Source: Actinomycetota bacterium (GTDB taxonomy: Bacteria > Actinomycetota > Acidimicrobiia > Acidimicrobiales > Aldehydirespiratoraceae). From it: a stretch of DNA of 64,000 nucleotides. The notes under the pieces were generated by a model. It saw only the letters and a list, made by a program, of their open reading frames with translations, ran no database searches and had not been told where the DNA came from. A program made the translations under genes and the position numbers. Positions 2,302 through 63,807 of the stretch are shown one piece after another (the first letter of the stretch is position 1; every line of letters starts with the position of its first letter). Where the stretch lies: positions 796-64,795 of the forward strand of contig JBCCWI010000011.1 in the NCBI GenBank assembly GCA_039193795.1. The letters are read 5' to 3'.

Positions 2302-3605
2302 GCGAATTCGACACCGACGATCTGCGCCGACGCGCCGAGTCCGGCGTGCCGCGTGGCGCGGCGAGCGTCTGGTCAGCCGCGACCGGTGAGGTGCGCCGCC
2401 GGCGCCGACGGGCCCGGGTCGGCGCGGGGCTCAGCGCAGCGGCTGCCGCCGTGTTCGCGCTCTCGTTCGTGGTCGGCGGCGACGACGGTGCCGACACCGA
2501 GGTCGTCTCGCCCCCGACGACGCAGGCCGGGTCGGGGGGCGACGCAGCGACCGCGTCGCCGGACGGTACGACGGACGACGTCGATGTCGATCGAGCCGGC
2601 CCCTCGGCCGACGGGTTGGTCGACGTGCTCCTGCTCCCGCTGCCGGAGGCGGAGGAGCGGCTCGCCTCGGTGGGACACGCGACCGAGGTCGTCGTGGGAT
2701 CGTCATCACCGGGTGCCGTGGTGCTCGCCAGTGATCCGCCACCCGGCCGCGGTGCGGCCGCCGGCCAGACCGTGCGACTCGTCGTCGGATCGGTGCCGAT
2801 CCCGTGGAGGGAGACCCCCATGCGAGCGATGCTGGACGATCTGTTCCTGTGGACCTGGGACGGGGCCGCCGGCCAGCGGATCGCGCTCCGGACGTCGGAG
2901 CTGGTCGCGGCCTGCATGACCGAGCAGGGGCAGCCCTACGAGGTGTGGGTACAGCCCGTGCCCGAGCAGGAGATCGGCGTCGTCGAGCTCGCCCGCAACG
3001 GGTGGGGACTGGCCCGTCGTCTGGTCGACGGGCCGGAACCGCAGCCGTCGTGGATGGAGCCGAATCCGAACCTGGCCTACGCCGCGTCCCTGAGCGGTGC
3101 GGCCTTCGAGACCTACAACGAGATCGAAGGGGCGTGTCACCGTCGGGCGACCGAGGAGATCGACGCCTGGCAGTCGCCGTTCAACCTCGAACAGCAGGAT
3201 CTGTTGGCCGAGGTCGCCGCCGAGCTCGGCGCGAGTTTCGCGGCGATCGACTCCGATCCGGCGTTGATCGAGGGGCGCCGCCGCTACTTCGAGTGCCTCC
3301 GCGCCGCGCACGGCGTCGAGATCGAGGAGTTCTTCCACGAGCACCTGATCGTCACCGAACGGCTCGACGAATTCGTCGCCCGCCACGGCGACGATCCGTC
3401 GTCGTGGTCGCAAGACGCCTGGGACGAGTTCGTCGCGCTCGAACACTTCGAACACGAGGTCGCCTTCACGGTGGTGGCCTGCGTGACCGAGCACGTCGAC
3501 CCCGTCCGCGACGAGGTCGCGACGCGAGTCGAGGAGGCGATGATCGAGGAGTACGCCGACTTCCTGGCCGGGTTGCAAGATGTCGTCGATCGGGCGCTCG
3601 GCTGA
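2298..3605 (+). CDS. Single-pass membrane protein with a PASTA-like extracytoplasmic segment and an unknown acidic C-terminal domain (possible sigma-factor partner)
   Basis: 435-aa ORF translationally coupled to the ECF sigma. Arg-rich stop-transfer followed by a TM helix (RRRRRARVGAGLSAAAAAVFALSFVVGG). The segment VDVLLLPLPEAEERLASVGHATEVVVGSSSPGAVVLASDPPPGRGAAAGQTVRLVVGS resembles a PASTA repeat. Confidence 0.55.
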   Translation: MSEFDTDDLRRRAESGVPRGAASVWSAATGEVRRRRRRARVGAGLSAAAAAVFALSFVVGGDDGADTEVVSPPTTQAGSGGDAATASPDGTTDDVDVDRAGPSADGLVDVLLLPLPEAEERLASVGHATEVVVGSSSPGAVVLASDPPPGRGAAAGQTVRLVVGSVPIPWRETPMRAMLDDLFLWTWDGAAGQRIALRTSELVAACMTEQGQPYEVWVQPVPEQEIGVVELARNGWGLARRLVDGPEPQPSWMEPNPNLAYAASLSGAAFETYNEIEGACHRRATEEIDAWQSPFNLEQQDLLAEVAAELGASFAAIDSDPALIEGRRRYFECLRAAHGVEIEEFFHEHLIVTERLDEFVARHGDDPSSWSQDAWDEFVALEHFEHEVAFTVVACVTEHVDPVRDEVATRVEEAMIEEYADFLAGLQDVVDRALG

Positions 3606-3635
3606 TCGGACGGTCGGGCGGCGTACGCTCCGCCC

Positions 3636-5723
3636 ATGGCCTTCACCTATCCCCCCGCCCGGCGAGGCGACGTCGTCGACGACTATCACGGCACCGAGAT
3701 CGCCGATCCGTATCGATGGCTCGAAGAGGTCGACGCAGCGGACACCAAGGCGTTCGTGGAGGCCCAGAACGCGGTGAGTGCTCCGTATCTCGCGAGCCTG
3801 CCCGACCGGGCTGCGTTGATCGACCGCATGACCGAGCTGTGGGACATCCCCCGGACCGAGCCTCCGCGTGTGCGGGGCGAGGGCGACGCCCGGGTCATGG
3901 TGTGGAGCCACAACGACGGCCTCGCCGACCAGCCGACGATCTGGATCCGACGAGGCGACGCCGACCCCGACGTGCTGCTCGACCCCAACACGCTCTCCGA
4001 GGACGGTGCCGTCGCGGTGACGGGATCCGCGCTGTCCGAGGACGGCCGCCTCTTCGCCTACCTCGTGGCCGAAGCCGGCAGCGATCGGCAGTACCTCGCC
4101 ATCCGCAGCACCGAGACCGGCGCAGACCTCGACGACCGGCTCGAACACCTGCGCTTCACGAGCATCGCCTGGTTCGGCGACGGCTTCTTCTACACCCGGT
4201 GGCCCGAGGTCGAACCCGGCTCGACGGCTCCCGTCCGGGATCCCTCGGTGCACTACCACCGGGTCGGAACCCCCCAGGCCGATGATCCGCTCGTGTTCCA
4301 CAACGACGACGACGCGGAGCCGATCTACAGCGCAGGACTCACCGAGGACCGTCGCTATCTCGTGTTGGCCGAACTGCTCGGCACCGACCGACGCAACGGT
4401 CTGCTCTATCTCGACCTCGACACCCACGGTGCCTCGATCGTCGACGGCGCGGCTGTCGACCCCGCTGGTTGGGTCCAGCTGGTGGCCCAGGGGGAAGCGG
4501 CCCACGAGGTCGTGTTGCACGTCGCCGGAGACGACGGCTCGAGCCGCTTCGTCGTGCAGACCGATCGCGATGCGCCCAACGGCCGCCTCGTGACGATCGA
4601 CCTGGCCGATCCGGACCCGGCGGCGTGGACGACGATCGTCGCCGAGACCGAGCAGCCGCTCGAGTGGGCCGCCGCTCTCGCCGGCGAGGTGATCGTCAAC
4701 CACCTCGCCGAGGCGTCGAGCGAGCTCACGCGCCACGCGCCGGACGGCACCGAACTCGGACGGCTCGACCTGCCGGGCGTGGGCAGTGTCACCGGCCTCG
4801 CCGGACGCTTCACCGACCCGGTCTTCTTCATCGGCTACCAGTCCTTCGTCGAACCGCCGACCGTGTTGCGGGTCTCGGAGGGCGCGAGCGAGGTGTGGGC
4901 GGCGAGCGAGGCGCCGATCGACCCCGCCGACGTGATCGTCGAACGCCTGCATGCGACCTCCACCGACGGTGCGCAGGTCGGCATGTTCGTGATCCGGCAC
5001 AAGGACGCTGCGCTCCCGGGGCCGGTCGAGCTCTACGGCTACGGCGGGTTCACCATCAACCTCACACCGGCATACAGCCCATCGCGGCTCGCGTTCCTCG
5101 AGGCGGGTGGGATCGTCGCGATCGCCAACCTGCGCGGCGGCTCCGAACACGGCGAGACCTGGCACGAGCAGGGCGCGCTGGGCAACAAGCAGCAGGTCTT
5201 CGACGACTTCGTCGCCTGCGGCCGCCACCTGATCGACCGGGGCGTCGCCACCGCCGACACCCTCGGGATCCGGGGTGGATCGAACGGCGGACTCCTCACC
5301 GCAGCAACGATGCTGCAGGCGCCGGAGCTCTTCGGTGCGGTGATCACCCAGGTGCCGGTGATCGACATGCTCCGGTTCCAGCACTTCACCGCAGGCCGAT
5401 TCTGGACGGTCGAGTACGGCGACGCCGCCGATCCCGAGGCGTTCGAATGGCTGATCGAGTACTCCCCGCTGCACAACGTGGCGGAGGGCGTCGACTACCC
5501 GCCGTTGCTGATCATGACGGCGGAGTCCGACGACCGGGTGGTCCCGATGCACTCCCACAAGTTCGCCGCGGAGGTGCAGTTCTGCGCCGGTGGATCGTCG
5601 GACAACCCGCTGATCGAACGGGTCGAGACACGAGCCGGTCACGGCATGGGGAAGCCGACCGCCAAGGCCATCGAGGAGGCGGCCGACATCTTCGCCTTCC
5701 TGCTGCATCACCTCCGGCCCTGA
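3636..5723 (+). CDS. Prolyl oligopeptidase (peptidase S9A family)
   Basis: 695-aa ORF. N-terminus YPPARRGDVVDDYHGTEIADPYRWLEE. Catalytic Ser motif IRGGSNGGLL. C-terminal D/H region (DDRVVPMHSHKF, RAGHGMG). Confidence 0.9.
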   Translation: MAFTYPPARRGDVVDDYHGTEIADPYRWLEEVDAADTKAFVEAQNAVSAPYLASLPDRAALIDRMTELWDIPRTEPPRVRGEGDARVMVWSHNDGLADQPTIWIRRGDADPDVLLDPNTLSEDGAVAVTGSALSEDGRLFAYLVAEAGSDRQYLAIRSTETGADLDDRLEHLRFTSIAWFGDGFFYTRWPEVEPGSTAPVRDPSVHYHRVGTPQADDPLVFHNDDDAEPIYSAGLTEDRRYLVLAELLGTDRRNGLLYLDLDTHGASIVDGAAVDPAGWVQLVAQGEAAHEVVLHVAGDDGSSRFVVQTDRDAPNGRLVTIDLADPDPAAWTTIVAETEQPLEWAAALAGEVIVNHLAEASSELTRHAPDGTELGRLDLPGVGSVTGLAGRFTDPVFFIGYQSFVEPPTVLRVSEGASEVWAASEAPIDPADVIVERLHATSTDGAQVGMFVIRHKDAALPGPVELYGYGGFTINLTPAYSPSRLAFLEAGGIVAIANLRGGSEHGETWHEQGALGNKQQVFDDFVACGRHLIDRGVATADTLGIRGGSNGGLLTAATMLQAPELFGAVITQVPVIDMLRFQHFTAGRFWTVEYGDAADPEAFEWLIEYSPLHNVAEGVDYPPLLIMTAESDDRVVPMHSHKFAAEVQFCAGGSSDNPLIERVETRAGHGMGKPTAKAIEEAADIFAFLLHHLRP

Positions 5724-5735
5724 CCGGGCCGGGGC

Positions 5736-6734
5736 TCAGTCGGCGAGCACCGCGTTGACCGCGTGCATGTGGTCGGGACCGATGCCGCAGCAGCCGCCGA
5801 TCAGGGTGGCGCCGACCGCACGCCAGATCGGGACGAACGCGGCGTAGTCGTCGGGGGTGATCGCATCGTCGAAGGACGGGAACTGGCCATCGACGACGAT
5901 CGCCGCGTGGGCGTAGGCCCCGAGCGGCCCGTCCCACCGGGTACGCATGGCGCGGAGCCCGGGCTCGATCAGGCGGGTGTCGGTGTGCATCAGGCACAGC
6001 ACGTCGGCGCCGTGATCTCGGGCGACATCGACCGCGTCGACCAGGAGATCGGCGTCCCGCAACGGGATCGGGTCCGCAAGCTCGCTCGCGTCGTGCCCTT
6101 CCTCCGGTCCGATGCTGAAGCCGACCCAGATCGGCAACCCGACGGTGGTGACGGCGTCGAGCGTGGCGGTCATCCGGTCGATGTCGACCATCATCTCCAG
6201 GCTGATGAGATCGGCGCCCGCGTCCCGCATGATCTCCGCCTGTCGGACGGTGTCCTCGCGGAGCCGATCGAGTGGTGGGTGGTCGCCCGAGAAACTCCAG
6301 TTGGACACGCCGCCGGCGACCACGACGTCGTCGCGTCTCGAGGCGTCACGAGCCGCCACCGCCAACTCGACCGCGATGCGGTTCACGTCCTCGAACTGGT
6401 GACCCCGTCCGACGTCGTCCATGACGTTGCGTCCGGCCGCGAAGGTGCATGACGCGATCAGGTCGGCACCGAGTCGGAGATAGTCGTCATGCACGGCCCG
6501 GACGATCTCGGGGTGGGTCAGGGCGGCGGCTCCGCTCCACCCCAGTTCGTGTTCGGGGACGCCGCGCCGGATCACCTCGGACCCGGTGGCGCCGTCGATC
6601 CGGACGAGGTCGCCTCGACGGGCTCGTTCGATCAGTCGGTCGTAGCGATCCACCCCCGGATCCTTGCCGATCGTCGCGTCCGGCGCAGCTCGTCCACGGG
6701 ACAGCGCCGTCAGCTTGATGTCATGCTGTGGCAT
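5736..6734 (-). CDS. Homocysteine S-methyltransferase family protein
   Basis: The ORF is 5736..6791; I prefer the ATG at 6734 (MPQHDIKL). An alternative GTG at 6653 would leave room for a promoter. Contains IDGATGSEVIRRG and the C-terminal zinc-site motif GGCCGIGPDHM. Confidence 0.75.
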   Translation of the reverse strand: MPQHDIKLTALSRGRAAPDATIGKDPGVDRYDRLIERARRGDLVRIDGATGSEVIRRGVPEHELGWSGAAALTHPEIVRAVHDDYLRLGADLIASCTFAAGRNVMDDVGRGHQFEDVNRIAVELAVAARDASRRDDVVVAGGVSNWSFSGDHPPLDRLREDTVRQAEIMRDAGADLISLEMMVDIDRMTATLDAVTTVGLPIWVGFSIGPEEGHDASELADPIPLRDADLLVDAVDVARDHGADVLCLMHTDTRLIEPGLRAMRTRWDGPLGAYAHAAIVVDGQFPSFDDAITPDDYAAFVPIWRAVGATLIGGCCGIGPDHMHAVNAVLAD

Positions 6735-8337
6735 GGCTTTGACGGAATCCCACGCCCACGGCGTCGAAACCCCCGCAGTCCTCGATGTCACGATCGGCGA
6801 TCTCCTCCGGTCTGCGGCGGACCGAGCGCCCGACCGAGTCGCGTTGATCGAAGGGATCCCCGAGGTGGGGGCGCGTCGCCAATGGACCTACACCGAGCTG
6901 CTGGCCGACGCCGAGCGGACCGCACGCGCCCTGCTCGCCACCTATCGGCCCGGCGACCACGTCGCGGTCTGGGCCCACAACGTGCCGGAGTGGGTGCTCC
7001 TCGAATTCGGGTGCGCGCTCGCGGGCATGACGATCGTGACGGTCAACCCGGCCTATCAGGCCTCCGAGCTCCAGTACGTCGTCAGCCAGTCCAACTCCAA
7101 GGCGCTGTTCGTGGTCGACGATCATCGTGGCAACCCGATGCTCACGATCGCGGAGAAGGTCCATCCCGGCTGCCCGGACCTCGAGGAGATCGTGCGCTTC
7201 GCGGACTGGGAGTCGTTCCTCGCCAGGGGCGACGAGGCGACGACGCTGCCCGCCGTGACCCCCGACGATCAGGTGATGATCCAGTACACGTCGGGCACGA
7301 CCGGCTTCCCCAAGGGCGCCGCGCTCCACCATCGCGGGCTCGTGACCAACTCGTACCACTTCCTCGATCGCCTCGGCATGGAGGACGGCGCGGTGATCGT
7401 CACCCAGATGCCGCTGTTCCACACGGCCGGCAGCGTGATGTCGGTGCTCGGCAGTACGTCGCTGGCATGCACCCAGGTGCTGGTGCCCGCATTCGAGCCG
7501 GGGCTCGTGCTCGAACTCACCGAGACCTACGGCGCCCACGGGATGATGGGCGTGCCGACCATGCTGATCGCGCTGATGGAGCATCCGAACTTCGACGACA
7601 CCGACCTGTCGTCGCTGCAGGCGATCTGCTCGGGCGGTTCGCTCGTCCCCGAGCACCTCGTGCGCACCCTCGAGAAGGAGCTCGGCTGCCCGTTCACGAT
7701 CGTCTACGGCCAGACCGAGTGTTCGCCGGTGCTCAACATGACCCGGCCCGACGACACGATCGAAGACAAGGCACTCACGATCGGTGCGCCGATGCCGTGC
7801 ATGGAGATCCGCATCGTCGACCCCGAGACGGGTGCGACCCTGCCCGTCGGCGAGACCGGCGAGTTGATCACCCGCGGCTATCAGGTGATGCACGGCTACT
7901 ACGAGATGCCCGAGCGCACGGCCGAGACGATCGACGCCGACGGCTGGTTGCACACCGGTGACCTGGCCGCCATGGACGATCGCGGCTACTGCACGATCGA
8001 GGGCCGTCTCAAGGACATGGTCATCCGAGGGGGCGAGAACATCTACCCCAAGGAGATCGAAGAGGTGCTCTTCGCGCACGACGCCGTCGCCGAGGTCGCC
8101 ATCGTCGGTCTCCCCGACGACAAGTGGGGCGAGACGGTCGGCGCGTTCATCCGCCCGGCGACCGATGCGGGCGTCAACAAGGCCGAACTCTTCGACTACC
8201 TGCGAGAGCACCTCGCCCCACACAAGACGCCGAAGCAGTGGTTCTCGGTCGACGCCTTCCCGCTCACCGGCTCGGGGAAGATCCAGAAGTTCGTCCTGCG
8301 CGACCAGTGGGTCGCCGGGGAGTGGGCCGAACTCTGA
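6733..8337 (+). CDS. AMP-dependent acyl-CoA synthetase/ligase (FadD-like)
   Basis: The ORF is 6664..8337; the likely start is MALTES at 6733. AMP-binding motif IQYTSGTTGFPKGAALHHRG; also GYCTIEGRLKDMVIRGGENIYPKEIE and GKIQKF. Confidence 0.85.
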   Translation: MALTESHAHGVETPAVLDVTIGDLLRSAADRAPDRVALIEGIPEVGARRQWTYTELLADAERTARALLATYRPGDHVAVWAHNVPEWVLLEFGCALAGMTIVTVNPAYQASELQYVVSQSNSKALFVVDDHRGNPMLTIAEKVHPGCPDLEEIVRFADWESFLARGDEATTLPAVTPDDQVMIQYTSGTTGFPKGAALHHRGLVTNSYHFLDRLGMEDGAVIVTQMPLFHTAGSVMSVLGSTSLACTQVLVPAFEPGLVLELTETYGAHGMMGVPTMLIALMEHPNFDDTDLSSLQAICSGGSLVPEHLVRTLEKELGCPFTIVYGQTECSPVLNMTRPDDTIEDKALTIGAPMPCMEIRIVDPETGATLPVGETGELITRGYQVMHGYYEMPERTAETIDADGWLHTGDLAAMDDRGYCTIEGRLKDMVIRGGENIYPKEIEEVLFAHDAVAEVAIVGLPDDKWGETVGAFIRPATDAGVNKAELFDYLREHLAPHKTPKQWFSVDAFPLTGSGKIQKFVLRDQWVAGEWAEL

Positions 8338-10463: not shown

Positions 10464-11779
10464 TGGGGTCGCTGCGGCGTCGACTCGGGATCGCGATCAG
10501 CGCCGGCGCCTTCGTCCTCACGGCGATCGCGGGCGTGGTCGTCGTCTACGAGCGTTGGCAGGAGGCGTTGTCGGCACTCCCCGAGGCGATCGACCTGGAG
10601 GCGTTCCGCCTCGCCGAGTCGACCGGTCTCAGCCTCGATGACCTGCCCGGTGACGACGGCTTCGCCCTGATGCTCGACGACGAGGGATCCGAACTCGCCT
10701 CGGTCGGCGACGTCGGCGACGAACTCTTCGACGTGCTGCTGTTCGACATCTGGGCGGAGACGACCATCCAGGATCTCGCCGTGAGCACCGGCCTCGAGAC
10801 CGACGCGGGCCTGGTGATCGCGACCGGGGTGGCCTGCACCGACACGGCCCGCTGCGACACGGTGGTGGTCGGGGCGACGGAGTTCTCGTTCTGGTCCTTC
10901 GCCGGGCCCCGGCTCGGTTGGGTGATCGGTCTCGCGACGGCGACCGCAGCCCTGACCCTGGTCGTGGTGCGGTGGCTCATCGGCCGGGCGTTGGAGCCGG
11001 TCGAGACGATGCGACAGGAACTCACGACGATCACTGCGACCGACCTCGACGCGCGGATCTCCGCCCCCGCGACCGGCGACGAGATCGAACGGCTCGGTCA
11101 CACGCTCGACGAGACGATCGGCCGGCTCGGGGCGGCCGTCGCGGCGAATGAACGGTTCGTCGCCGATGCCGCTCACGAACTGCGGAGCCCCATCACCGGC
11201 GTTCGAGCGGCCATCGAGGTCGAGGCGGCGGCCGGCGATCGTCCGCTGCTCGACGAGAGCATCCGCGAGCTCGATCGCGCCGGTCGGTTGGTCGACGACC
11301 TGCTGGTGCTCGCCCGTCGTCAAGGAGACGCTGCGCCGTCGGCCGAGGTCGATCTCGACGACGTCGGGCGCGCCGCGGTCGCCGCGTTCCTGGTCCGGCA
11401 TCCCGATGTCGAGATCGACGCCTCCTTCGCCCCGATCCGGGTTCGCGGGGACGCCGACGCACTCAACCGGGTGGTCACCAACCTGCTCGACAACGCGGCC
11501 CGCTACGGCGACGGGCAGATCCGCATCCAGGTACGGCAGAGCGCAAACCGGGCGGTTCTGCGCGTCGAGGACGATGGCCCGGGCATCCCGGTCGCCGACC
11601 GTGCGCGGGTGTTCGAACGATTCACCCGGCTCGACGAGTCGCGCGCCCGGGCCACCGGCGGGTCGGGGGGGGGCCGCGCCCGCCGGCGCGAGGGGGTGGA
11701 GGCGCACGGCGGCACCGTCGCCGTCGAGGGCCCCGACGGCGGTGGCGCCCATGTCGTGATCGAACTCCCGACGAGCTGA
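10463..11779 (+). CDS. Sensor histidine kinase (atypical G2 box)
   Basis: Start MGSLRRRLGIAISAGAFVL overlaps the regulator stop (TGATG). H-box HELRSPITGV, N-box LLDNAARYG, G1 DDGPGI. The expected GxGLGL is replaced by GGSGGGRARRRE ahead of VEAHGG. Confidence 0.8.
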   Translation: MGSLRRRLGIAISAGAFVLTAIAGVVVVYERWQEALSALPEAIDLEAFRLAESTGLSLDDLPGDDGFALMLDDEGSELASVGDVGDELFDVLLFDIWAETTIQDLAVSTGLETDAGLVIATGVACTDTARCDTVVVGATEFSFWSFAGPRLGWVIGLATATAALTLVVVRWLIGRALEPVETMRQELTTITATDLDARISAPATGDEIERLGHTLDETIGRLGAAVAANERFVADAAHELRSPITGVRAAIEVEAAAGDRPLLDESIRELDRAGRLVDDLLVLARRQGDAAPSAEVDLDDVGRAAVAAFLVRHPDVEIDASFAPIRVRGDADALNRVVTNLLDNAARYGDGQIRIQVRQSANRAVLRVEDDGPGIPVADRARVFERFTRLDESRARATGGSGGGRARRREGVEAHGGTVAVEGPDGGGAHVVIELPTS

Positions 11780-18547: not shown

Positions 18548-19096
18548 TCAGCGTGTCGCCTCGACGGCGGCGATGATCTCGTCGACGGCGGGTCGGTCGT
18601 CGGGGCCGGCGCCCCAGAAGCCCCACGCGAGCGTGCCGTCGGGACCGATCACCATGTCGCCACCGAGTTGCAGGGTGTCCTCGGTCGGCCGGGCGAGGTC
18701 ACGCCAGCCGCCATCGGCGAGCAGCTGGACGTAGCGACGGGCCGCCCGCCATCCCCAGACGCGGGTGATCGAGCCCCGCCCGAACCCATAGGCGCGGTAC
18801 GCCCGCCGGTCGGGATCGGTCAGCACCGGGAACGGGAGCATGGTGCGGATGATGTGATCCGACAGGTTCGCCGGATCGGTGAAGGTCACGAGCACGACCG
18901 TCGTGTCCGGTCCGAGATCGTCGAGCCGGTCGCGCACGGCGACGGCATGAGCCGTGCACGGGAGTCAATGGATGTGACGGTGGAAGATGACGACCACGGT
19001 CGAGCCCTGCTGATCGGTGAGTCGCCACGGCTCGCCATCGCCGTCGATGAGTTCGAGCGGTGGTGTGGGATCCCCGATGATCGGTCGAGTGGTCAT
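18548..19096 (-). CDS. PRX_like2 / AhpC-TSA-type thioredoxin-fold redoxin with in-frame UGA (candidate selenocysteine, U44) in a U-L-P-C motif
   Basis: Track ORF 18548..18937 lacks the family's redox motif. The same frame upstream from ATG 19094..19096 reads MTTRPIIGDPTPPLELIDGDGEPWRLTDQQGSTVVVIFHRHIH-TGA(18965..18967)-LPCTAHAVAVRDRLDDL... Downstream family motifs: FPVLTDPDRRAYRAYGF and LGGDMVIGPDGTL. Confidence 0.65.
18931..18960 (-). promoter_or_regulatory. SECIS-like hairpin directly 3' of the in-frame UGA
   Basis: The mRNA reads UGA CUCC then CGUGCACGGC-[UCAUGCCGUC]-GCCGUGCGCG. This is a 10-bp stem including one G.U. The loop starts 15 nt after the UGA. A mutually exclusive inner hairpin, ACGGC-UCAU-GCCGU, is also possible. 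Confidence 0.4.
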
Positions 19097-20499: not shown

Positions 20500-21027
20500 A
20501 TGGCTGCCGCACACGACGTTCCGATGGGTGATCCGACTCGCCTGTCGGAGATCTACGACGATGCCGTCGACGAGGTGTTCCGATATCTCCGGGCGCGCTG
20601 CGGCTCGGCAGTCCTCGCCGAGGAGCTGACCTCCGCGACCTTCGTGCAGGCCGCACTCGAGACGTCGCGTGGAACGGTGCCGGACCTCTCGGTTCGGTGG
20701 CTGGTCACCGTCGCCCGTCACAAGCTCGTCGACCACTGGCGCCGCGAGGCGATGGCCGACCGCAAGCTGGTGCTACTCGAAGGCGGCCGCATCGACACGG
20801 TCGACCCGTGGAACGCAGTGCTCGACGAAGCCCGCGCCCGACAGGTGCTGCTCGACATCGCCCCGACCTACCGCGCCGTGTTGACCCTGCGGTATCTCGA
20901 CGATCTGAGCGTGCCCGAGTGCGCCGAGCAACTCGGTAAGTCCGTCCACGCGACCGAGAGCGTGCTCGCGCGAGCCCGCAACGCCTTCCGAACCGCCTAC
21001 GAGCAGACCGGAGGTCATGATGACTGA
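20500..21027 (+). CDS. ECF-type RNA polymerase sigma-70 family factor
   Basis: 175 aa. EELTSATFVQAAL...WLVTVARHKLVDHWRR (region 2). YRAVLTLRYLDDLSVPECAEQLGKSVHATESVLARARNAFR (region 4). Confidence 0.8.
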   Translation: MAAAHDVPMGDPTRLSEIYDDAVDEVFRYLRARCGSAVLAEELTSATFVQAALETSRGTVPDLSVRWLVTVARHKLVDHWRREAMADRKLVLLEGGRIDTVDPWNAVLDEARARQVLLDIAPTYRAVLTLRYLDDLSVPECAEQLGKSVHATESVLARARNAFRTAYEQTGGHDD

Positions 21028-22015
21028 CCCGCTCCGCGACCTGAACCCGCCCGAGGCCGTCGACTCGCCGAGCCCGGGCTTCGTGGAACGCCTGCGGGCC
21101 CGCGTCCATGCGATCGAGGCGCGAGCGGACCGTGCGCCGCAGGGTTGGCACCTCGCCCAACTCAACCTCGGGGTGTTCAAGGCACCGCTCGACGCCCCGG
21201 AGATGGCGCCGTTCGCCGCGGCCCTCGATCGCATCAACGCGATCGCCGACGAGTCGCCCGGGTTCGTGTGGCGCCTCACCGACGACGACGGGGGACCGTC
21301 GAGCAATGTCGAGGTCCCGGGATCCGACGATCCGCTGCTCGCGTCGAACCTGTCGGTGTGGCGCGACTACGACTCGCTGCGGGAGTTCATGTATCGCACC
21401 GACCACGCGTCGTACCTCCGCCGTCGAGCCGAGTGGTTCGAGCGGGAGTCGATCCCGATGGTGGTCGGCTGGTGGGTGCCCGCCGGAACCGTTCCCACGC
21501 TCGATGAGGCGCTGGACCGCCTCGAACACCTGCGCCGTGAGGGCCCGTCTGCGGCGGCGTTCCCGCTCACCCGCACCATTCCCGATCCCCCGTCCACCGC
21601 GACCAACCAGGAGGTACCCGCCATGGGTCAGGTCTTCATCCCGTATCTCACCGTCGGCGACAGTCGTGCGGCGCTCCAGTTCTACGGCGAGGTGTTCGGC
21701 GCCGAGCGCTCCGGCGAACTCTTCGAGATGGACGATGGCCGGATCGGCCACGCCGAGATGACGATCGGCGATCAGGTCTTCTACATGGCCGACGAGTTCG
21801 CCGAGATGCAGCTGCACGCGCCGACGGCGCACGGCGGCAACTCGGTCTCGTTGGTGATCCATGTCGAGGACTGCGACGCCGTCTACGAACACGCGCTCCT
21901 CGCCGGTGCGACCGGCGAGCGCCCCCCGGCCGATCAGCACGGCTTCCGGTCCGGATGGTTCGTCGACCCCTGGGGCCACCGCTGGTCGCCGACCAGCGCC
22001 GCCACCGGCGCCTGA
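21017..22015 (+). CDS. Fusion protein: DUF3291-like domain + VOC/glyoxalase (PhnB-like) domain
   Basis: 332 aa; overlaps the sigma gene by 11 nt. The N-terminal half is paralogous to ORF 60377..60826 (LAQLNLG..., WRLTDDDG..., SVWRDYDSLREFMYRTDHASYLRRRAEWFE..., WWVPAG). The C-terminal half reads IPYLTVGDSRAALQFYGEVFGAE...GHAEMTIGDQVFYMADE...DPWGHRW. Confidence 0.7.
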   Translation: MMTDPLRDLNPPEAVDSPSPGFVERLRARVHAIEARADRAPQGWHLAQLNLGVFKAPLDAPEMAPFAAALDRINAIADESPGFVWRLTDDDGGPSSNVEVPGSDDPLLASNLSVWRDYDSLREFMYRTDHASYLRRRAEWFERESIPMVVGWWVPAGTVPTLDEALDRLEHLRREGPSAAAFPLTRTIPDPPSTATNQEVPAMGQVFIPYLTVGDSRAALQFYGEVFGAERSGELFEMDDGRIGHAEMTIGDQVFYMADEFAEMQLHAPTAHGGNSVSLVIHVEDCDAVYEHALLAGATGERPPADQHGFRSGWFVDPWGHRWSPTSAATGA

Positions 22016-31855: not shown

Positions 31856-32266
31856 ATGACCGAGCTGCGCTACCTGGAACAGACACCGGCGATCGGGGAG
31901 TTCCGCGCCCTACGCGAGCGGGCCGGCCTGAGCTCGAAGACGCAGGAGGCGGCGGCCGCCGGTCTGCCGAACACGCTCCACGCCGTGTGTGTTCGCGACG
32001 GCGACCGTCTCGTCGGGATGGGCCGGGTCGTCGGCGACGGCGGCCTCAACTTCGAGATCGTCGACATGGCGGTCGATCCCGACCACCAACGACAGGGGAT
32101 CGGCTACCGGGTCATGGAGCTGCTCATGGCATACGTGCATCGCACGGCAGCACCCTCGGCGTACGTGAGCCTGATCGCCGACGACGGGGCACCGGCGCTC
32201 TACGCCAAGTTCGGGTTCGCACCGACGGCACCGGCGTCGATCGGCATGTCGGTGACGATCGATTGA
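31856..32266 (+). CDS. GNAT family N-acetyltransferase
   Basis: 136 aa. [27 protein letters not shown] and ALYAKFGF. Confidence 0.8.
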
Positions 32267-32270
32267 CCGT

Positions 32271-32313
32271 GGCGGGCACCGCGGCCGACGGCCCGCCGGC
32301 CGCGGTGCCCGCC
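32271..32313 (+). terminator. Strong hairpin after the GNAT gene (terminator-like, no U-tract)
   Basis: Perfect 17-bp stem GGCGGGCACCGCGGCCG (32271..32287) / CGGCCGCGGTGCCCGCC (32297..32313) with a 9-nt loop. Confidence 0.55.
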
Positions 32314-32333
32314 ATCATCTCGCCGTAGGATCC

Positions 32334-34481
32334 GTGCCGATGTCGACCGTCGGCTCCATCACCTTCGACGACGTGATCGTGCCGTTCAACGACGGCGACG
32401 ACGTGATGACGGCACTCGTGCGCGCCGGGCTCCACCCGAGCGGCGGTGGCGTGCTCTGCACCGAGGGCGTGTCGCCCCACAGCCTTGCGGAGATCGACGG
32501 GATCACCTACCGCCACACCGCGTTCACGCGGGCCCGCGACGGCATGGTCGTCCGGGCCCATGCCGCCGACGATCCGCCACCTCTGCCGGCGCACCCCACC
32601 TCGCCGGCCGCCGTGAGCGTCACCAACGTCCACCACCGCACGGTCGTCGTGGGTGGGGGATCGTCCGGGAGGGCCGCGGCCGCCCAGCATGACGACGTCG
32701 TCGTCTTCGATGCCCACGACGGCGAGGAGGTCGTGGGCATCTTCCCCGGACCGCTGGTCGTCGTGCGCACCGATGCGGGCATGATCCACGCCCACGCCGA
32801 ACACGTGGTCGTCGCCACCGGCTCCGTGCCGATCATGCCGGTGTGCCCCGGCACCGAGCTCGCCGGCATCTACACCCCGGGTGCGGCGGCGCGGCTCCGA
32901 TCGGCCGGGATCGACCTGGGGCGGGTCGTGACCGTGTCGCGCCCGCCCGATCGCTTCGCGGGTGATGGTGGGGTCGCGGCGGTCGTCGGCGCCGGCGACC
33001 GCCACGAATGTGAGGCCGTCATCGTCGACCTCGGCACGACACCCAACGATCTGCTCGCTCGGATGGGGGGCGACGACGTGTCGGTCGTCGGCGCTGCGGC
33101 GCTCACAGCCGAGCCCCCGCCGATGCCGGCGGAGGGCGTGGTGTGTCATGCCAACGGTGTCACCGTCGCCGACCTCCACGACGCATGGGATCGCGGCTTC
33201 ACCGGCATGGAACTGCTCAAGCGGGCGACGCTCGCGGGGACGGGCGCGACCCAGGGCATCGACTCGGTGCCGTATCTGCGCCGGTTCATCCTCGAGCGTG
33301 GCGGACGGCTCGAACCGGCCTTCACCGCCCGCCCGGTCGCCCGTCAGGCGACGCTCGGCGAGCTCGCTGCGGGGCGCCACCACGCCGTCGTGCCTCGCAC
33401 CGCTCTCCACGACGAACACCTCGCGCTCGGCGCGACGATGGATCGACTCGGCGGCTGGTGGCGGCCCTGGACCTATGGCGACGCCGACGCCGAGTACCGG
33501 GCCGTTCGCGAGGCGGTCTCGCTCGGCGACGTCGGCACGCTCGGCAAGTTCCTCGTGTCGGGGCCCGACGCCGAAGCCGCGCTCCAGCGGGTGTTCCCGA
33601 CCGACGTGTCGACGATCCGCCCGGGCCGCAGCCGCTATATCCTCATGCTCGACGAGCGCGGTTGTGTTCTCGATGACGGCATGATCCTGCGAGAGGCCGA
33701 GGGCGACCGCTTCTACGTGACCGTCACCTCCGGCGGTGCGAGCGTTGCCGAGATGTGGGTTCGAGACTGGACGGCGCACCTCGACGTGCGCTGGCTCAAC
33801 GCCACCATGTCGCTCGGGGCGATCAACGTGACCGGGCCGAAGGCGCCGGACGTGATGGCGCGGGCTGGACTCGACGAGACCCTGTCGATGCTGCGTCACA
33901 CCCACGCCGAGATCGCCGGCGTGCCGTGCCGGGTCGTGCGGCTGAGCTTCACCGGCGAGGTGAGCTACGAACTCCATCACCCCTTCGCCCGGTCGCCGGA
34001 GCTGTGGCGGGCGCTGCTCGACCTCGGCGCCGATCTCGGGATCGCTCCGCACGGGCTCGATGCGCTCACCCGACTGCGGCTCGAGAAGGGCCACCTCATC
34101 GTCGGTCAGGACACCGACTACGACTCGACGCCACGGCGGTTGCACCACGAGGCGATGGTCAATCTCGAGCGGGGCGGTGACTTCATCGGTCGCCATGCGA
34201 TCGAGCGGACCGACCGTCTGCCGCTCGACAAGATGCTGGTCGGACTCGAGTGCGACACCGAGGCACCCTTCGAGGGTGCGGTCGCCTGGCGCACCGATGG
34301 CGAGTACGCCGGCTACGTCACGTCGTCCACCTGGTCACCCACCCTCGACCGGGCGGTGATGTTGGCGTGGGTCCGCACCGTCGACGGCGATCTGCCCGAC
34401 GAGGTCGTGGTCGAGGGTCGGACGGCTCGTCGGGTGCCGGTGCCCTTCTACGATCCGGACGGGGAGCGGGCCCGTGGCTGA
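32334..34481 (+). CDS. Sarcosine oxidase alpha-subunit-like protein (short form with GcvT-type aminomethyltransferase C-terminal domain)
   Basis: 715 aa. VVVGGGSSGRAAA. The C-terminal half is GcvT-like (YRAVREAVSLGDVGTLGKFLVSGPDA...RLSFTGEVSYELHHP...GLDALTRLRLEKGH). Confidence 0.75.
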   Translation: MPMSTVGSITFDDVIVPFNDGDDVMTALVRAGLHPSGGGVLCTEGVSPHSLAEIDGITYRHTAFTRARDGMVVRAHAADDPPPLPAHPTSPAAVSVTNVHHRTVVVGGGSSGRAAAAQHDDVVVFDAHDGEEVVGIFPGPLVVVRTDAGMIHAHAEHVVVATGSVPIMPVCPGTELAGIYTPGAAARLRSAGIDLGRVVTVSRPPDRFAGDGGVAAVVGAGDRHECEAVIVDLGTTPNDLLARMGGDDVSVVGAAALTAEPPPMPAEGVVCHANGVTVADLHDAWDRGFTGMELLKRATLAGTGATQGIDSVPYLRRFILERGGRLEPAFTARPVARQATLGELAAGRHHAVVPRTALHDEHLALGATMDRLGGWWRPWTYGDADAEYRAVREAVSLGDVGTLGKFLVSGPDAEAALQRVFPTDVSTIRPGRSRYILMLDERGCVLDDGMILREAEGDRFYVTVTSGGASVAEMWVRDWTAHLDVRWLNATMSLGAINVTGPKAPDVMARAGLDETLSMLRHTHAEIAGVPCRVVRLSFTGEVSYELHHPFARSPELWRALLDLGADLGIAPHGLDALTRLRLEKGHLIVGQDTDYDSTPRRLHHEAMVNLERGGDFIGRHAIERTDRLPLDKMLVGLECDTEAPFEGAVAWRTDGEYAGYVTSSTWSPTLDRAVMLAWVRTVDGDLPDEVVVEGRTARRVPVPFYDPDGERARG

Positions 34482-59603: not shown

Positions 59604-60380
59604 ATGGCGTACGAACGGATCACGGTCGAGCGCGACGGCGACGTCGTCACCCTCACCCTCGCCAACCCCGAGAAGCGCAACGTGTTGGCGCTCGACACGA
59701 TGCAGGAGATCACCGCGGCGTTGACCGAGATCGGTGACACCGACGCGCTCGGCGTCATCGTCGCGGCCGAAGGCCCGGTGTTCTCCGCCGGCCACAACTT
59801 CGGCGACATGCTCGGTCAGTCCGAGGAGGACGTGCGGGCACTCTTCGACGTCTGCACCGAGATGATGACCCTCATCCAGGCACTGCCCCAGGTCGTGATC
59901 GCCCGGGTCCACGCCCTGGCGACGGCCGCCGGTTGCCAGTTGGTCTCGATGTGTGACCTGGCGGTCGCCGGTGCGTCGGCGGCGTTCGCTGCGCCCGGGG
60001 GCAAAGGCGGGTTGTTCTGCCACACGCCGATGGTCGGCATCTCCCGGGCCATCGGTCGCAAGCGAGGCCTCGAGCTCGCCTTGATCGGGGATCCGATCGA
60101 CGCGCACACCGCCGCCGACTGGGGGCTCGTGAACCGGGTTGTCCCCGACGATCGGCTGGTGGACGAGACGGCGGAGCTGATGGCTCGCGCCACCCGCGGT
60201 TCGGCCACGTCCAAGGCGCTCGGGAAGCAGACGTACTACGCCCAGATCGACATGGCGCAGAGCGATGCCTACGAGTTCGCGACCGGCGTGATGTCGGCCG
60301 GCGCGGTCTCACCCGACGGGCAGGAGGGCATCGCATCCTTCGTGGAGAAGCGGCGACCGGAGTTCGGTCCTCGGGTGTGA
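59604..60380 (+). CDS. Enoyl-CoA hydratase/isomerase (crotonase) family protein
   Basis: 258 aa. VVTLTLANPEKRNVL...VIVAAEGPVFSAGHNF...ATAAGCQLVSMCDLAV. Confidence 0.85.
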   Translation: MAYERITVERDGDVVTLTLANPEKRNVLALDTMQEITAALTEIGDTDALGVIVAAEGPVFSAGHNFGDMLGQSEEDVRALFDVCTEMMTLIQALPQVVIARVHALATAAGCQLVSMCDLAVAGASAAFAAPGGKGGLFCHTPMVGISRAIGRKRGLELALIGDPIDAHTAADWGLVNRVVPDDRLVDETAELMARATRGSATSKALGKQTYYAQIDMAQSDAYEFATGVMSAGAVSPDGQEGIASFVEKRRPEFGPRV

Positions 60381-60826
60381 GCTGGCAGCTCGCCCAGTTC
60401 AACGTCGCGACGGCGAAGTTCGACGACGACGATCCGCGACTGGCCGAGTTCATCGACAACCTCGATCGGCTCAACACCCTCGGCGACGACGCGCCCGGTT
60501 CGGTGTGGCGCTTCCAGAGTGACTCCGGCAACTCCGTGGACGTGAAGGCGTACGAGGATCCGCGGATCCTGCTCAACCTCACGGTGTGGGAGGACGTGAA
60601 GTCGCTCTGGGACTATGTCTACAAGACCGATCACGTCGACTTCCTGCGACGCCGCACCGAGTGGTTCGAGGTCGAGTCGCAACCCTTCGTCGTGATGTGG
60701 TGGGTCCCGGCCGGCCATCGACCCACCCCGGCGGAAGGCGTCGAGCGTCTCGAACACCTGCGGGCGAACGGGCCGACGCCCTACGCCTTCTCGTTCCGTG
60801 ACAACTACGAGCCACCGTCCCGGTGA
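60377..60826 (+). CDS. DUF3291-like protein (stand-alone paralog of the N-domain of 21017..22015)
   Basis: 149 aa. WQLAQFNVA, WRFQSDSG, TVWEDVKSLWDYVYKTDHVDFLRRRTEWFE, MWWVPAGHRPT and ERLEHLRANGPTPYAF. 4-nt overlap with the crotonase gene. Confidence 0.7.
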   Translation: MSWQLAQFNVATAKFDDDDPRLAEFIDNLDRLNTLGDDAPGSVWRFQSDSGNSVDVKAYEDPRILLNLTVWEDVKSLWDYVYKTDHVDFLRRRTEWFEVESQPFVVMWWVPAGHRPTPAEGVERLEHLRANGPTPYAFSFRDNYEPPSR

Positions 60827-60829
60827 CGG

Positions 60830-62347
60830 TCAGTCGATGATGTTGTCGTACACCCAGTCGTTGTAGGTGACGCCCTCCGGCAGCACATGTCGGGTCGCCT
60901 GATCGGCGGGTGCCTGGCGCCACTCGGGGGCCGTGCCTCCGGCGTAGAGCTCACGCAGGAAGGTGCGTCGACGCTGGCTCTCCTCGACGAGCGGGCCGAG
61001 GGTTTCGAGGTCCCACCGGTCCTCGACGAGGGCGTTGAGTTCGGTCTGTGCCTCGGCGTAGGCGGCGTCGTCGGCGAGGTTGGTCAGCTCATGGGGGTCG
61101 GTGCGGAGGTCGAAGAGCTGGGCCGGATCGCAGCCGCTCCACACGTACTTCATCGCGCCGCGCTTGGCCATGAGGATCGGGGCGGTGGCGCCCTCGGACA
61201 GGTTCTCGCCGAACACGACGTCACGATCGCTGGTGAGCAGCGACGTGCCCTCGATCGGCTCGACGACGTGGGTCCCGCCGGCCAGCTCGACGAACGTCGG
61301 CAGCAGGTCGGCGAGCGAGACGTTGCGGCTGCTTCGCCCCGGGTCGATCCCAGCGCCGGCGACGAGCAGCGGGATGCGCGACGACGGCTCGAAGAACGAG
61401 CGCTTGTACCAGAGGCCCCGTTCGCCGAGGAAGTCGCCGTGGTCGGTCGAGAACACGATGACCGTGTTGTCGGCCATGCCCGACTCTTCGAGTGCACCGA
61501 GGACTTCCCCGACGATGTCATCGCAGTAGCTCACCGAGCCGTAGTAGCCGTGGCGAGCGGTGCGGATCTGCTTGGCGGTCGGCACGAAGTGTTCGAGGCC
61601 GGTCTGTTGCAGCAGTCGCAGGCTGTACGGGTCCTGCTCGTCGAGTCGTCCGACGGCCGGCATGTCGATCTCGTCGTGGTCGTAGCGCGCCCAGTGTTCG
61701 TGGTCGCACTGGTACGGATCGTGGGGGTGGGTGAACGACAGCGTGAGGTGCCATGGCTGGCCGTCGTCGATGCCGACGCCACGTCCGAGGTCGAAGAGCT
61801 TGCGGCGGGCGCGGTGCAGGACCTCCTCGTCGTAGTCGATCTGCACGTTGCGGGTGACCGGTCCGGCGAGGGTGAACGAACGGGCGTCGTTGCCGTGCTC
61901 CTCGCTGGTGTCGGTCCAGTCACCGGTCCACTGGAAGCTGGCGGGGTAGATGTCGATCGTGAGTCGTTCGTCGAATCCGTGGAGCTGGTCGGCACCGACG
62001 AAGTGCATCTTGCCGACCAGGGCGGTGTGGTAGCCGGCCGCCTTGAGATAGTGCGCGTAGGTCGGATACGAGCTCGGGAACTCCGCGCCGTTGTCGTACG
62101 CGCCGACCTCGGAGGCCAGCCGCCCCGACAGCATCGAGAAGCGGCTCGGCGCGCAGAGGGCGAAGTTCGTGTATGCCGAGTCGAACACGAGTGAGCGTTC
62201 GGCGAGTCCGTCGAGATGCGGTGTCTTCGCGATCGGGTTGCCGTACGCCGGGAGGAACGAGGCGGCGAGCTGGTCGACCTGGATGAACACGATGTTCGGC
62301 TGCGGCACGGCGAGAGTCTGCCGCAGCGAGCCAGTGCGCGCATCCAC
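60830..62347 (-). CDS. betC: Choline-sulfatase
   Basis: 505 aa. The formylglycine motif CAPSR sits in YTNFALCAPSRFSMLSG. Long collinear matches to Sinorhizobium BetC as I recall it: YDNGAEF..S.PTYAHYL..AGY.TAL.GKMHFVG.DQLHGF.ERL..DIYPA.F, SFTHPHDPY and DHGD.LGERGLW.K..FFE.S.R.PL. Confidence 0.85.
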   Translation of the reverse strand: MDARTGSLRQTLAVPQPNIVFIQVDQLAASFLPAYGNPIAKTPHLDGLAERSLVFDSAYTNFALCAPSRFSMLSGRLASEVGAYDNGAEFPSSYPTYAHYLKAAGYHTALVGKMHFVGADQLHGFDERLTIDIYPASFQWTGDWTDTSEEHGNDARSFTLAGPVTRNVQIDYDEEVLHRARRKLFDLGRGVGIDDGQPWHLTLSFTHPHDPYQCDHEHWARYDHDEIDMPAVGRLDEQDPYSLRLLQQTGLEHFVPTAKQIRTARHGYYGSVSYCDDIVGEVLGALEESGMADNTVIVFSTDHGDFLGERGLWYKRSFFEPSSRIPLLVAGAGIDPGRSSRNVSLADLLPTFVELAGGTHVVEPIEGTSLLTSDRDVVFGENLSEGATAPILMAKRGAMKYVWSGCDPAQLFDLRTDPHELTNLADDAAYAEAQTELNALVEDRWDLETLGPLVEESQRRRTFLRELYAGGTAPEWRQAPADQATRHVLPEGVTYNDWVYDNIID

Positions 62348-62373: not shown

Positions 62374-63339
62374 TCACCACTCGAGGCGGCGGACGGAGGC
62401 TCCTTCGGTCGCCGCCTCGAGGAACGCTCTGGCCTCCTCGAGCACGACGCGTTGGCGCTCGGCATCGCCAGGTGGGCCGAGCGGACGGCCGAGGGGTTGC
62501 GGGGTCAGCACGAGTCGAGGGATCGACATCGGGATCATGCGGCCGGCGAACGTCTCCGACGCGATCATGACCGTCGGGATTCCGGCCGCTTCGAGCAGGC
62601 GTGCGACGTGCCCCACGGACACGTGGCAGACCGGTCAAAGGGGGACGAGGAACGCCGCTTCGATCCCGTCGGTCCGGAACTGCTCGACCCACTCGGGGCC
62701 GGTCTTCTTGGTGAGGCGGACCTGTGAGCAGGCGCCGACGAAGGAGAAGGCACCGGCGTACTCGCCGAGCGCGCCGTCGGCGGCCCACGCCTCCATGTGG
62801 TCGATCGGGAGGCCGACGTTGTGGTCGAGCTGCGCCCCTTCGATCGGGTAGCCGCCGTGGCGGACGCGCAGCTGGTCACCCGTCGTGCCCGGAGGGATCG
62901 ACGACAGCGACGGCGCCTCCTTGAGGAAGTCCTGGATGCGTTCGACCGCTTCGTCCTGGGTCATGTCGGCGACGCCGAACGGTTCGGGGTCGTCGCCGTC
63001 GAGGAAGTGGCCGCTCGATGTGACCAGGGCGACCTTACGCTCGGAGAGCGGCGACGACAGCGGGGTGAACGGGGCGTCGTCGTAGCTGAACTGGCCGGGT
63101 TTGTCGTAGGCCCTGACCTGCCAGTCCTTGAGGAAGAGCGCCATCTCCCGAGCTCGTTCGTCGGTGCCGTCGGCGACGGTCACCGCATGACGGATCAGTT
63201 CTTCGAAGAAGGTGGCGGCGTCGGCCTCGTCGAGCGCGGCCAGGAACTTGGCATCGAGGTTGGTGCGGGTGCTGTAGGAGAAGGAGTTCTTGAAGGCCTC
63301 GAACGTCTCCGGTGTCGGCTGGTCCTGCTCATCGCTCAT
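62374..63339 (-). CDS. GrdB/PrdB-family (glycine/sarcosine/betaine/D-proline reductase selenoprotein B-like) protein with in-frame UGA (candidate Sec, about U235) in a U-P-V-C motif
   Basis: Track ORFs 62635..63381 and 62374..62622 are in the same frame, separated only by TGA (62635..62637). The joined reading is ...GIEAAFLVPL-U-PVCHVSVGHVARLLEAAGIPTVMIASETFAGRMIPMSIPRLVLTPQPLGRPLGPPGDAERQRVVLEEARAFL... This parallels the GrdB region around Sec as I recall it (..ILTST-U-GTCTRCGATMVKEIERAGIPVVH....RIVP...PHPLGNP...). The likely start is the ATG at 63339 (MSDEQDQ). Confidence 0.65.
62602..62628 (-). promoter_or_regulatory. SECIS-like hairpin 3' of the in-frame UGA
   Basis: The mRNA reads UGA CCGGUC then UGCCACGUG-[UCCGUGGGG]-CACGUCGCA. 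This gives 8 pairs plus one C.C mismatch. The G-rich 9-nt loop begins 16 nt after the UGA. A shorter alternative is CCACG-UGUC-CGUGG. Confidence 0.35.
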
Positions 63340-63432
63340 GTGCTCATCATGTCTCAGCGGTGTCGGCGACGGCGTACCCAATGGTCGTCACGGCGACAGG
63401 CGACGGCCTCGCCCGCCGATCGGATTCGTCTG

Positions 63433-63497
63433 GGTGTCGCACCGTAGTGGAACGCCGTTCGCCGCCCCCGGCCTGCGTTCCACTACCGTGCGACACC
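63433..63497 (-). terminator. Very stable hairpin (23-nt arms, 22 paired) overlapping the stop codon of the small upstream ORF
   Basis: GGTGTCGCACCGTAGTGGAACGC (63433..63455) and GCGTTCCACTACCGTGCGACACC (63475..63497) are reverse complements with one central mismatch, separated by a 19-nt loop. The stop (complement of 63483..63485) lies inside one arm. No U-tract follows. Confidence 0.5.
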
Positions 63498-63776
63498 CCT
63501 CACCAGAGTCCGCAATGCGGCGGTTCGGTGGATCATCCGGTGTCTGGTGGTGCGGGGGAGATCACCGATCGCGTCGTGACCGTGTCCGGTGCGGACGACA
63601 CGGCCACGCCGGACCTCGGCCCGAAAGGCGTCCGGGATCGTACGACTGGCGCGGCCGCCGACTCGGAACCCGTCGGCCTCGAGGTCGAGCCGGAGCTCGG
63701 CGACCGTCGCCGAGCCGCCTCGTTCGATGAGCAGGGTGACCAGGTAGCGGCGCAGATCGAGGGTGTGAAGGATCAC
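63483..63776 (-). CDS. Small hypothetical protein (about 97 aa), possibly winged-helix-like
   Basis: GTG at 63776 (VILHTLDLRRYLVTLLIERGGSATVAELRLDLEADGF...). GC3-rich codon usage in this frame. The part of ORF 63483..63947 upstream of this start overlaps the acyl-CoA dehydrogenase gene and looks non-coding. Confidence 0.35.
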   Translation of the reverse strand: MILHTLDLRRYLVTLLIERGGSATVAELRLDLEADGFRVGGRASRTIPDAFRAEVRRGRVVRTGHGHDAIGDLPRTTRHRMIHRTAALRTLVRGVAR

Positions 63777-63807
63777 CGCCCGAGCCTGCTCGGGCGGTGT
63801 GACCTGC

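Follow-up and report, generated by a model that had tools for sequence, protein, structure and literature searches.

A predicted selenoprotein of a stand-alone GrdB/PrdB-related clade, with an in-frame UGA at its UxxC motif, in an Actinomycetota genome

We analysed a 64,000-nucleotide stretch of contig JBCCWI010000011.1 (assembly GCA_039193795.1, Actinomycetota), referred to here as the window. On its minus strand, positions 62374..63339 very probably form one gene for a 321-residue selenoprotein from a stand-alone clade within the GRDB (GrdB/PrdB) superfamily, rather than for a B subunit as encoded in a canonical D-proline or glycine/sarcosine/betaine reductase operon. Two open reading frames (ORFs) of this strand, 62635..63381 and 62374..62622, share one frame, and their sole interruption is a TGA codon predicted to encode selenocysteine (Sec, U). 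The elements of the gene are the following, the hairpin being described by its likeness to a bacterial selenocysteine insertion sequence (SECIS).

62374..63339, minus strand: PrdB/GrdB-like selenoprotein coding sequence, from the ATG at 63339 to the terminal stop TGA at 62374..62376; 321 residues, with the predicted Sec as residue 233
62635..62637, minus strand: in-frame UGA, predicted Sec codon (U233); TGA in 79/80 species loci, TGC in six Cys-form loci
62626..62628, minus strand: codon of Cys236, the putative resolving Cys of the motif U-P-V-C (UxxC); PVCH is at least 90% conserved across 86 C-terminal parts
62602..62628, minus strand: SECIS-like hairpin inside the coding sequence, found by folding and starting 7 nt after the UGA; 8-bp core and 3-bp lower extension across a 1x1 mismatch
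62606..62624, minus strand: hairpin core ACGUGUCC-GUG-GGGCACGU, 8 bp, 10 nt after the UGA, with the loop GUG at 62614..62616

The UGA codon and the hairpin that follows it

Translation of the whole coding sequence yields 321 residues and the terminal stop, with the internal stop at residue 233 in the context ...EAAFLVPL-U-PVCHVSVGHVARLLEAAGIPTVMIAS..., where the motif around the predicted Sec is LVPL-U-PVC-HVSVGH. The ATG at 63339 is also the start used in GenBank and is consistent with the N-termini of the homologues. The G+C content at third codon positions (GC3) is 0.94 over the 80 codons 5' of the TGA and 0.82 past it. A first-pass annotation of this DNA had described two minus-strand ORFs split by the TGA alone, coding bias on both of its sides and a stem-loop at 62602..62628, and had expected gene callers to truncate the protein. 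Translation, GC3 and folding agree with this description, and the truncation is seen in GenBank. The entry MEM9464595.1 (P0001), named 'glycine/sarcosine/betaine reductase selenoprotein B family protein', is 100% identical to the window protein and has 234 aa; it needs correcting, as it is devoid of the active-site UxxC motif and of 88 residues. This entry comes from an Actinomycetota metagenome-assembled genome (MAG) and the nearest relative from a Candidatus Microthrix MAG, as fits the actinobacterial host that had been assumed earlier.

Relatives of the gene were collected in a species scan with one genome per GTDB species, in which 228 genomes contained a relative and 80 loci were retained. 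The window and species set, together with five loci (L081–L085) recovered from four full-length Cys-form proteins, comprises 86 loci. The codon in the U column is TGC in a single species locus (L038) and TGA in the other 79 of the 80; TGC is found there also in L081–L085. A UxxC or CxxC motif is discernible in every species locus. The few full-length homologues in the databases, uninterrupted and 328–338 aa long, read LVPVCPVCHVSVGH or LVPGCPVCHVSVGH, with Cys in the U column, and the Cys-form proteins P0007–P0011 have LVPVCPVCH or LVPGCPVCH at this place. The pattern is the one foreseen for the orthologues, namely UGA at the UxxC site and Cys in some homologues.

Past the UGA, the frame remains open for 74–112 codons in 86 of 86 loci. 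The C-terminal 86 residues of the window protein are 43–93% identical to their counterparts in the 85 other loci, and the motifs PVCH, SVGH, and GR..G downstream of the U column are near-invariant in this set. Because both the UGA/Cys column and the downstream frame are conserved across the loci, a pseudogene or a sequencing error is ruled out. Judged from these alignments, selection maintains the UGA of the UxxC motif as a sense codon, equivalent to one for Cys.

Database entries for the family mostly end where the entry for the window protein ends. A search of 5.8 billion proteins gave 292 matches, and among the 120 listed nearly all have 220–263 residues and end at the U column. In a search of 1.84 billion representative proteins, 286 clusters were found at E ≤ 1e-3, 28 of them at E ≤ 1e-30, and most full-length top matches stop at about residue 231–241, i.e. 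at U. According to the record titles, the hosts of the homologues are Actinomycetota (many of them Acidimicrobiales), Chloroflexota, delta-proteobacteria/Desulfobacterales, Spirochaetales, SAR324, Acidobacteriota, Bacillota, and Deferrisomatales.

The hairpin was compared in an ungapped alignment of 80 TGA-form sequences, using the 11-pair structure. Pairing is observed in 88.7% of the cells, against 23–57% when the 3' partners are slid by 1–3 columns. Two core pairs show compensatory double changes, from C-G to U-A in 12 sequences and from G-C to A-U in 10. Cells changed on both sides thus number 22, compared with 4.4 expected, a count reached by 0 of 500 shuffles and not to be read as a probability, since the sequences are related. 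The compensatory changes pair a synonymous His substitution (CAC to CAU) with a Val-to-Ile or Val-to-Met replacement on the opposite arm. Furthermore, all 80 sequences have GGA or GGG as the Gly codon of the stem, whereas these two make up 37% of the Gly codons over the upstream 200 codons, and the stem Ser codon is UCC in 68 of 80, compared with 24% elsewhere in these genes. The apical loop, which begins 18 nt downstream of the UGA, opens with a G and a U that are both at least 90% conserved. These comparisons suggest that the hairpin is as expected of a bacterial SECIS and that its RNA is under selection. Rfam gave no match at gathering thresholds across the window, and none at E ≤ 10 around the UGA.

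Two further features bear on the decoding of UGA as Sec, one in the window and the other beside a homologue.

18548..19096, minus strand: second UxxC gene, for a SelL-related / AhpC-TSA_2 redox protein, with an in-frame TGA at 18965..18967
18951..18960 and 18931..18940, minus strand: arms of the hairpin of the SelL-related gene; 10 bp, 5 nt after the UGA, z = -2.3
10980..11077 of locus L074 (Desulfobacula MAG): tRNA-Sec gene (anticodon TCA), 2.4 kb downstream of the PrdB-like gene

The product of the second gene reads MTTRP...VVVIFHRHIH-U-LPC-TAHAV..., scores 116.6 bits with the SelL-related model NF040769 (cut-off 120), and also matches Pfam AhpC-TSA_2. Conservation of this TGA extends to all five other loci compared, where the frame runs on upstream through LIFHRHIH-U-LPC. 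The GenBank call covers just the 129 residues 3' of the TGA, a cut that is also seen in nearly all of the homologues in the databases. This 129-aa AhpC/TSA family protein annotation also needs correcting, being truncated at the opposite end through the in-frame TGA. The presence in the window of a second conserved UxxC gene with a TGA supports the decoding of Sec by this organism and marks it as a probable Sec user. The tRNA-Sec gene of L074 is one of just seven tRNA genes across the flanks of all homologue loci; the 64-kb window itself contains no tRNA gene.

Family relationships and candidate partners

For profile searches, the two halves were joined with U replaced by C and compared with Pfam and NCBIfam models. 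The joined protein matches Pfam GRDB (PF07355) with 39.5 bits, above the cut-off of 22 (E = 5.5e-10), with residues 36–232 on columns 162–345 of 347. In hidden Markov model (HMM) coordinates, the position of the UGA is immediately past the end of this 347-column model. The best NCBIfam match is PrdB (TIGR04483), with 80.8 bits against a cut-off of 300 and residues 90–317 on columns 19–228 of 238; U233 maps near columns 150–155 of this model, and it is by HMM coordinates alone that it falls in the expected column. The remaining curated models fail as well: GrdB (TIGR01917, 31.1 bits against 602.2), GrdH (NF040795, 49.5 against 775), GrdF (NF040794, 39.8 against 800), and the selenoprotein-B subfamily (TIGR01918, 34.4 against 65.45). 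Since the Pfam GRDB cut-off is passed and the curated PrdB, GrdB, GrdF, GrdH and TIGR01918 cut-offs are missed, the window protein is, by its profile scores, a member of the GRDB superfamily, as had been proposed, and not an equivalog of any characterised B subunit. Its N-terminal segment, ETFExFKNSFxYGSRxDLNFKFL, is specific to the clade, highly conserved and located outside both the PrdB and the GRDB model.

These scores are reflected in the comparison with the known systems. The D-proline reductase subunit PrdB (Clostridium sticklandii, Clostridioides difficile) is homologous over residues 90–317 of the window protein and likewise has a UxxC motif with Sec, presumably the nucleophile. In contrast to PrdB, the window protein extends about 80 residues further at the N-terminus, and no prdA, prdC or other prd gene is near it in the window or in the 80 loci. 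With GrdB, GrdF, and GrdH it shares the Pfam GRDB domain, yet it scores only 31–50 bits against cut-offs of 602–800 and corresponds to about the C-terminal 275 of the approximately 435 GrdB/GrdH model positions. No grdA, grdE, grdC/D or thioredoxin genes occur in the window or among recurrent neighbours.

The closest counterpart is found in environmental surveys. In the Sargasso Sea, 'proline reductase PrdB' (UxxC) was the third most abundant known selenoprotein family, with 42 genes (PMC1088965), and the Global Ocean Sampling (GOS) survey listed 235 Sec and 110 Cys forms with a UxxC motif under pfam07355 (PMC2398784). Recent reviews retain the 'PrdB' label (PMC9312934, PMC13188914), while PrdA is mentioned in neither of the two surveys (PMC1088965, PMC2398784). 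The environmental family and the clade described here have in common pfam07355, a UxxC motif with Sec first, Sec and Cys forms, a bacterial SECIS directly after the UGA, and abundance in oxic environmental samples, not in fermenters (PMC1088965, PMC2398784). From the match in domain, motif, Sec and Cys forms, and hosts, we infer that the stand-alone clade is the environmental 'PrdB' family catalogued in 2005 and 2008. As these surveys already list UxxC proteins of pfam07355 as 'PrdB', the gene is a new member of a known selenoprotein family. The finding is neither rare nor new in kind; what is added here is the recognition of a clade that stands by itself and falls short of the PrdB and GrdB models. 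Searches of the literature on PrdB-like or GrdB-like proteins or PF07355 in aerobes turned up nothing specific to this clade.

Just past the Sec codon, residues 235–265 (window 62539..62631) show weak similarity to the UGSC family (NF041046, E = 0.012; PF24696, E = 0.12), likewise a stand-alone environmental family of UxxC selenoproteins. The score of 15.6 bits against a cut-off of 125, over about 30 residues only, makes this a lead rather than a relationship; the similarity may mean that two abundant families of environmental UxxC proteins are distantly linked.

Pfam scans of the large high-GC3 ORFs of the window detected no GrdA, GrdE/PrdA, GrdC/D, thioredoxin or thioredoxin reductase. In the 80 homologue loci, the ORFs up to 6 kb from the gene were grouped into clusters. 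These neighbourhoods show no conserved partner gene and no recurring PrdA- or GrdE-like cluster, and the top non-self clusters are shadow ORFs of the PrdB-like gene. The gene had been called an orphan without canonical Grd/Prd partners or a thioredoxin system in the window. The lack of these partners in the window stands, but the gene is not isolated, being part of a stand-alone clade present in at least 228 species genomes.

Only one functional neighbour recurs, in genomes of several phyla: a flavoprotein disulfide reductase of class I whose CxxxxC motif is intact. The models that it matches best are those of MerA, Lpd, and glutathione reductase, in each case below the cut-off. It lies directly upstream on the same strand, with a gap of 0–61 nt, in five loci (L048, L052, L055, L067, L076), and within 6 kb in seven further loci (L020, L021, L023, L046, L057, L077, L080). 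We regard this protein as a candidate redox partner of the PrdB-like protein, and its presence next to the gene in some genomes is a concrete lead on the function of the clade. In four loci, a thioredoxin-reductase-like gene is nearby.

Alternative readings and proposed function

The protein could serve as subunit B in a canonical reductase for D-proline, glycine, sarcosine or betaine, with the other components (PrdA or GrdE, GrdA, GrdC/D, and a thioredoxin system) encoded elsewhere in the genome. PrdB as the best curated match, over most of the columns of its model, and the literature label 'proline reductase PrdB' for such sequences (PMC1088965, PMC2398784) point in this direction, as do genes distant in the window that might supply betaine, sarcosine or glycine (5739..6887, 32256..34478, 60830..62347). 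We nevertheless consider a canonical subunit quite unlikely, because the equivalog scores fall far under every curated cut-off, no pyruvoyl proprotein is encoded nearby, the N-terminal segment is the clade's own, and many hosts are not anaerobes of the fermentative kind. These hosts are MAGs labelled Acidimicrobiales, Microthrix or Chloroflexota, whereas Stickland-type reductases are a property of strict anaerobes. Canonical systems are, moreover, operonic, for example grdA-grdB and prdB-prdC (PMC13188914), and no cluster of this kind recurs in the 80 genomes.

Two other readings concern the UGA itself. If the TGA were a true stop, the gene would encode a protein of 234 aa, or be a pseudogene, and the downstream frame would be untranslated. 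GenBank and nearly all listed database entries do end at this codon, and TGA is an ordinary stop in these loci, where it terminates 44 of the 86 family genes. Such a stop is extremely improbable in view of the open and conserved frame past it in every locus and the continuous Cys-form homologues of 328–338 aa; the truncated product, in addition, would be without any UxxC motif. Read-through without selenium, by near-cognate insertion of Cys or Trp or under a reassigned code, would turn the hairpin into a by-product of the His-Val...His-Val peptide, and the stem pairs retained in Cys-form genes agree with this. It is nonetheless very unlikely: the synonymous choices in the stem (Gly GGR, Ser TCC) and the coupled His and Val-to-Ile changes indicate selection on the RNA, and both another, unrelated UxxC gene whose TGA is conserved and a tRNA-Sec gene beside one homologue point to Sec. 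A reassigned code is excluded because the genes of the window are strongly TGA-terminated and just two in-frame TGAs in the 64 kb (62635..62637, and 3603..3605 on the plus strand) have a coding signal on both sides.

In the preferred reading, that of a selenoprotein of the stand-alone clade, the following steps are proposed. The UGA at 62635..62637 would be decoded as Sec, with the hairpin 10 nt past it recruiting SelB with Sec-tRNA(Sec), by analogy with bacterial SECIS elements. Sec233 and Cys236 would form the redox-active UxxC pair, as the motif suggests. In agreement with this, a structural model of the Cys homologue P0008, which is 52% identical to the window protein, places the U/C column in a loop between strand 225–229 and helix 235–248 (predicted local distance difference test, pLDDT, 92.3; predicted template modelling score, pTM, 0.91). 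A strand-to-helix loop is the usual site of a redox-active CxxC or UxxC motif. As in PrdB and GrdB, the selenol of Sec233 may be the nucleophile of the reductive step and may end as a selenenyl-sulfide with Cys236. For the re-reduction of this bond, the best candidate would be the NAD(P)H-dependent flavoprotein disulfide reductase of the MerA/Lpd/glutathione-reductase type.

More tentatively, and with somewhat less than even confidence, we propose that the clade is a selenoenzyme complete in itself, belonging to aerobic or facultative bacteria (Acidimicrobiia, Chloroflexota, and others), and not a subunit of the Stickland type. The conserved N-terminal segment would then replace the pyruvoyl partner, and the MerA/Lpd-like flavoprotein would recycle the selenenyl-sulfide. 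If this is true, a selenoprotein family that ranks among the most abundant in the sea bears a wrong label, 'proline reductase'.

Several observations weigh against the selenoprotein reading or the function proposed for it. The six Cys-form genes retain 7–8 of the 8 stem pairs with a similar minimum free energy (MFE); because they keep the pairs and CACGUG is self-complementary, the stem is partly forced by the repeated His-Val peptide. The comparison of Cys- and Sec-form hairpins was dropped as a discriminator, pairs and MFE being alike in both. The 71-nt segment containing the hairpin has a stability unremarkable for its local G+C (z = -0.81), so the support for the hairpin is comparative and not thermodynamic. 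Pfam scans found no sel gene among the large high-GC3 ORFs of the window. The flavoprotein is a neighbour in just 12 of the 80 loci, and tblastn with a representative of its cluster gave no match in the window. The PDB holds no sequence match at E ≤ 1, and no solved structure anchors the chemistry; Foldseek returned nothing significant (best E = 6e-3, TM 0.21).

For a selenoprotein specialist, the gene holds nothing surprising. Its value lies in the two corrected annotations and in the role of the clade, which is widespread, is filed under 'D-proline reductase PrdB' without the partner genes of that enzyme nearby, and whose real function is a testable question.

Other features of the window

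By Pfam, the ORFs of the window are ordinary catabolic and regulatory genes. The second TGA with a two-sided coding signal is located near the start of the window.

3603..3605, plus strand: TGA between the same-frame, high-GC3 ORFs 1929..3602 (no Pfam match) and 3606..5720 (prolyl oligopeptidase)

This TGA was considered as a selenoprotein candidate and dropped, flanked as it is by an ORF with no Pfam match and a complete prolyl oligopeptidase; it probably marks the usual boundary between two genes and not a recoding site.

A sulfatase gene (60830..62347) lies directly downstream of the PrdB-like gene, an arrangement common only to the closest relatives (L001, L002). In L081, a sulfatase and an ECH gene are also found 4–7 kb from the Cys-form gene, and a link to the sulfatase was judged too weak. 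Together with an S-methyltransferase (5739..6887) and a GCV_T-domain protein (32256..34478), the sulfatase makes up a scattered set of possible choline-sulfate/betaine catabolism genes.

Upstream of the selenoprotein start, at a distance of about 95 nt, we observe an inverted repeat (63432..63498) whose 24-nt arms are 96% complementary and 19 nt apart. The stop codon of a small ORF without annotation, at about 63483..63800 (minus strand; GC3 0.80, no Pfam match), overlaps the repeat. The repeat is present as a single copy in the window, occurs in the same place in the closest relative (L001), and is probably a terminator or regulatory hairpin. The window also contains two DUF3291 genes on the plus strand, at 60377..60826 and 20909..22012, the second of which is fused to a glyoxalase domain.

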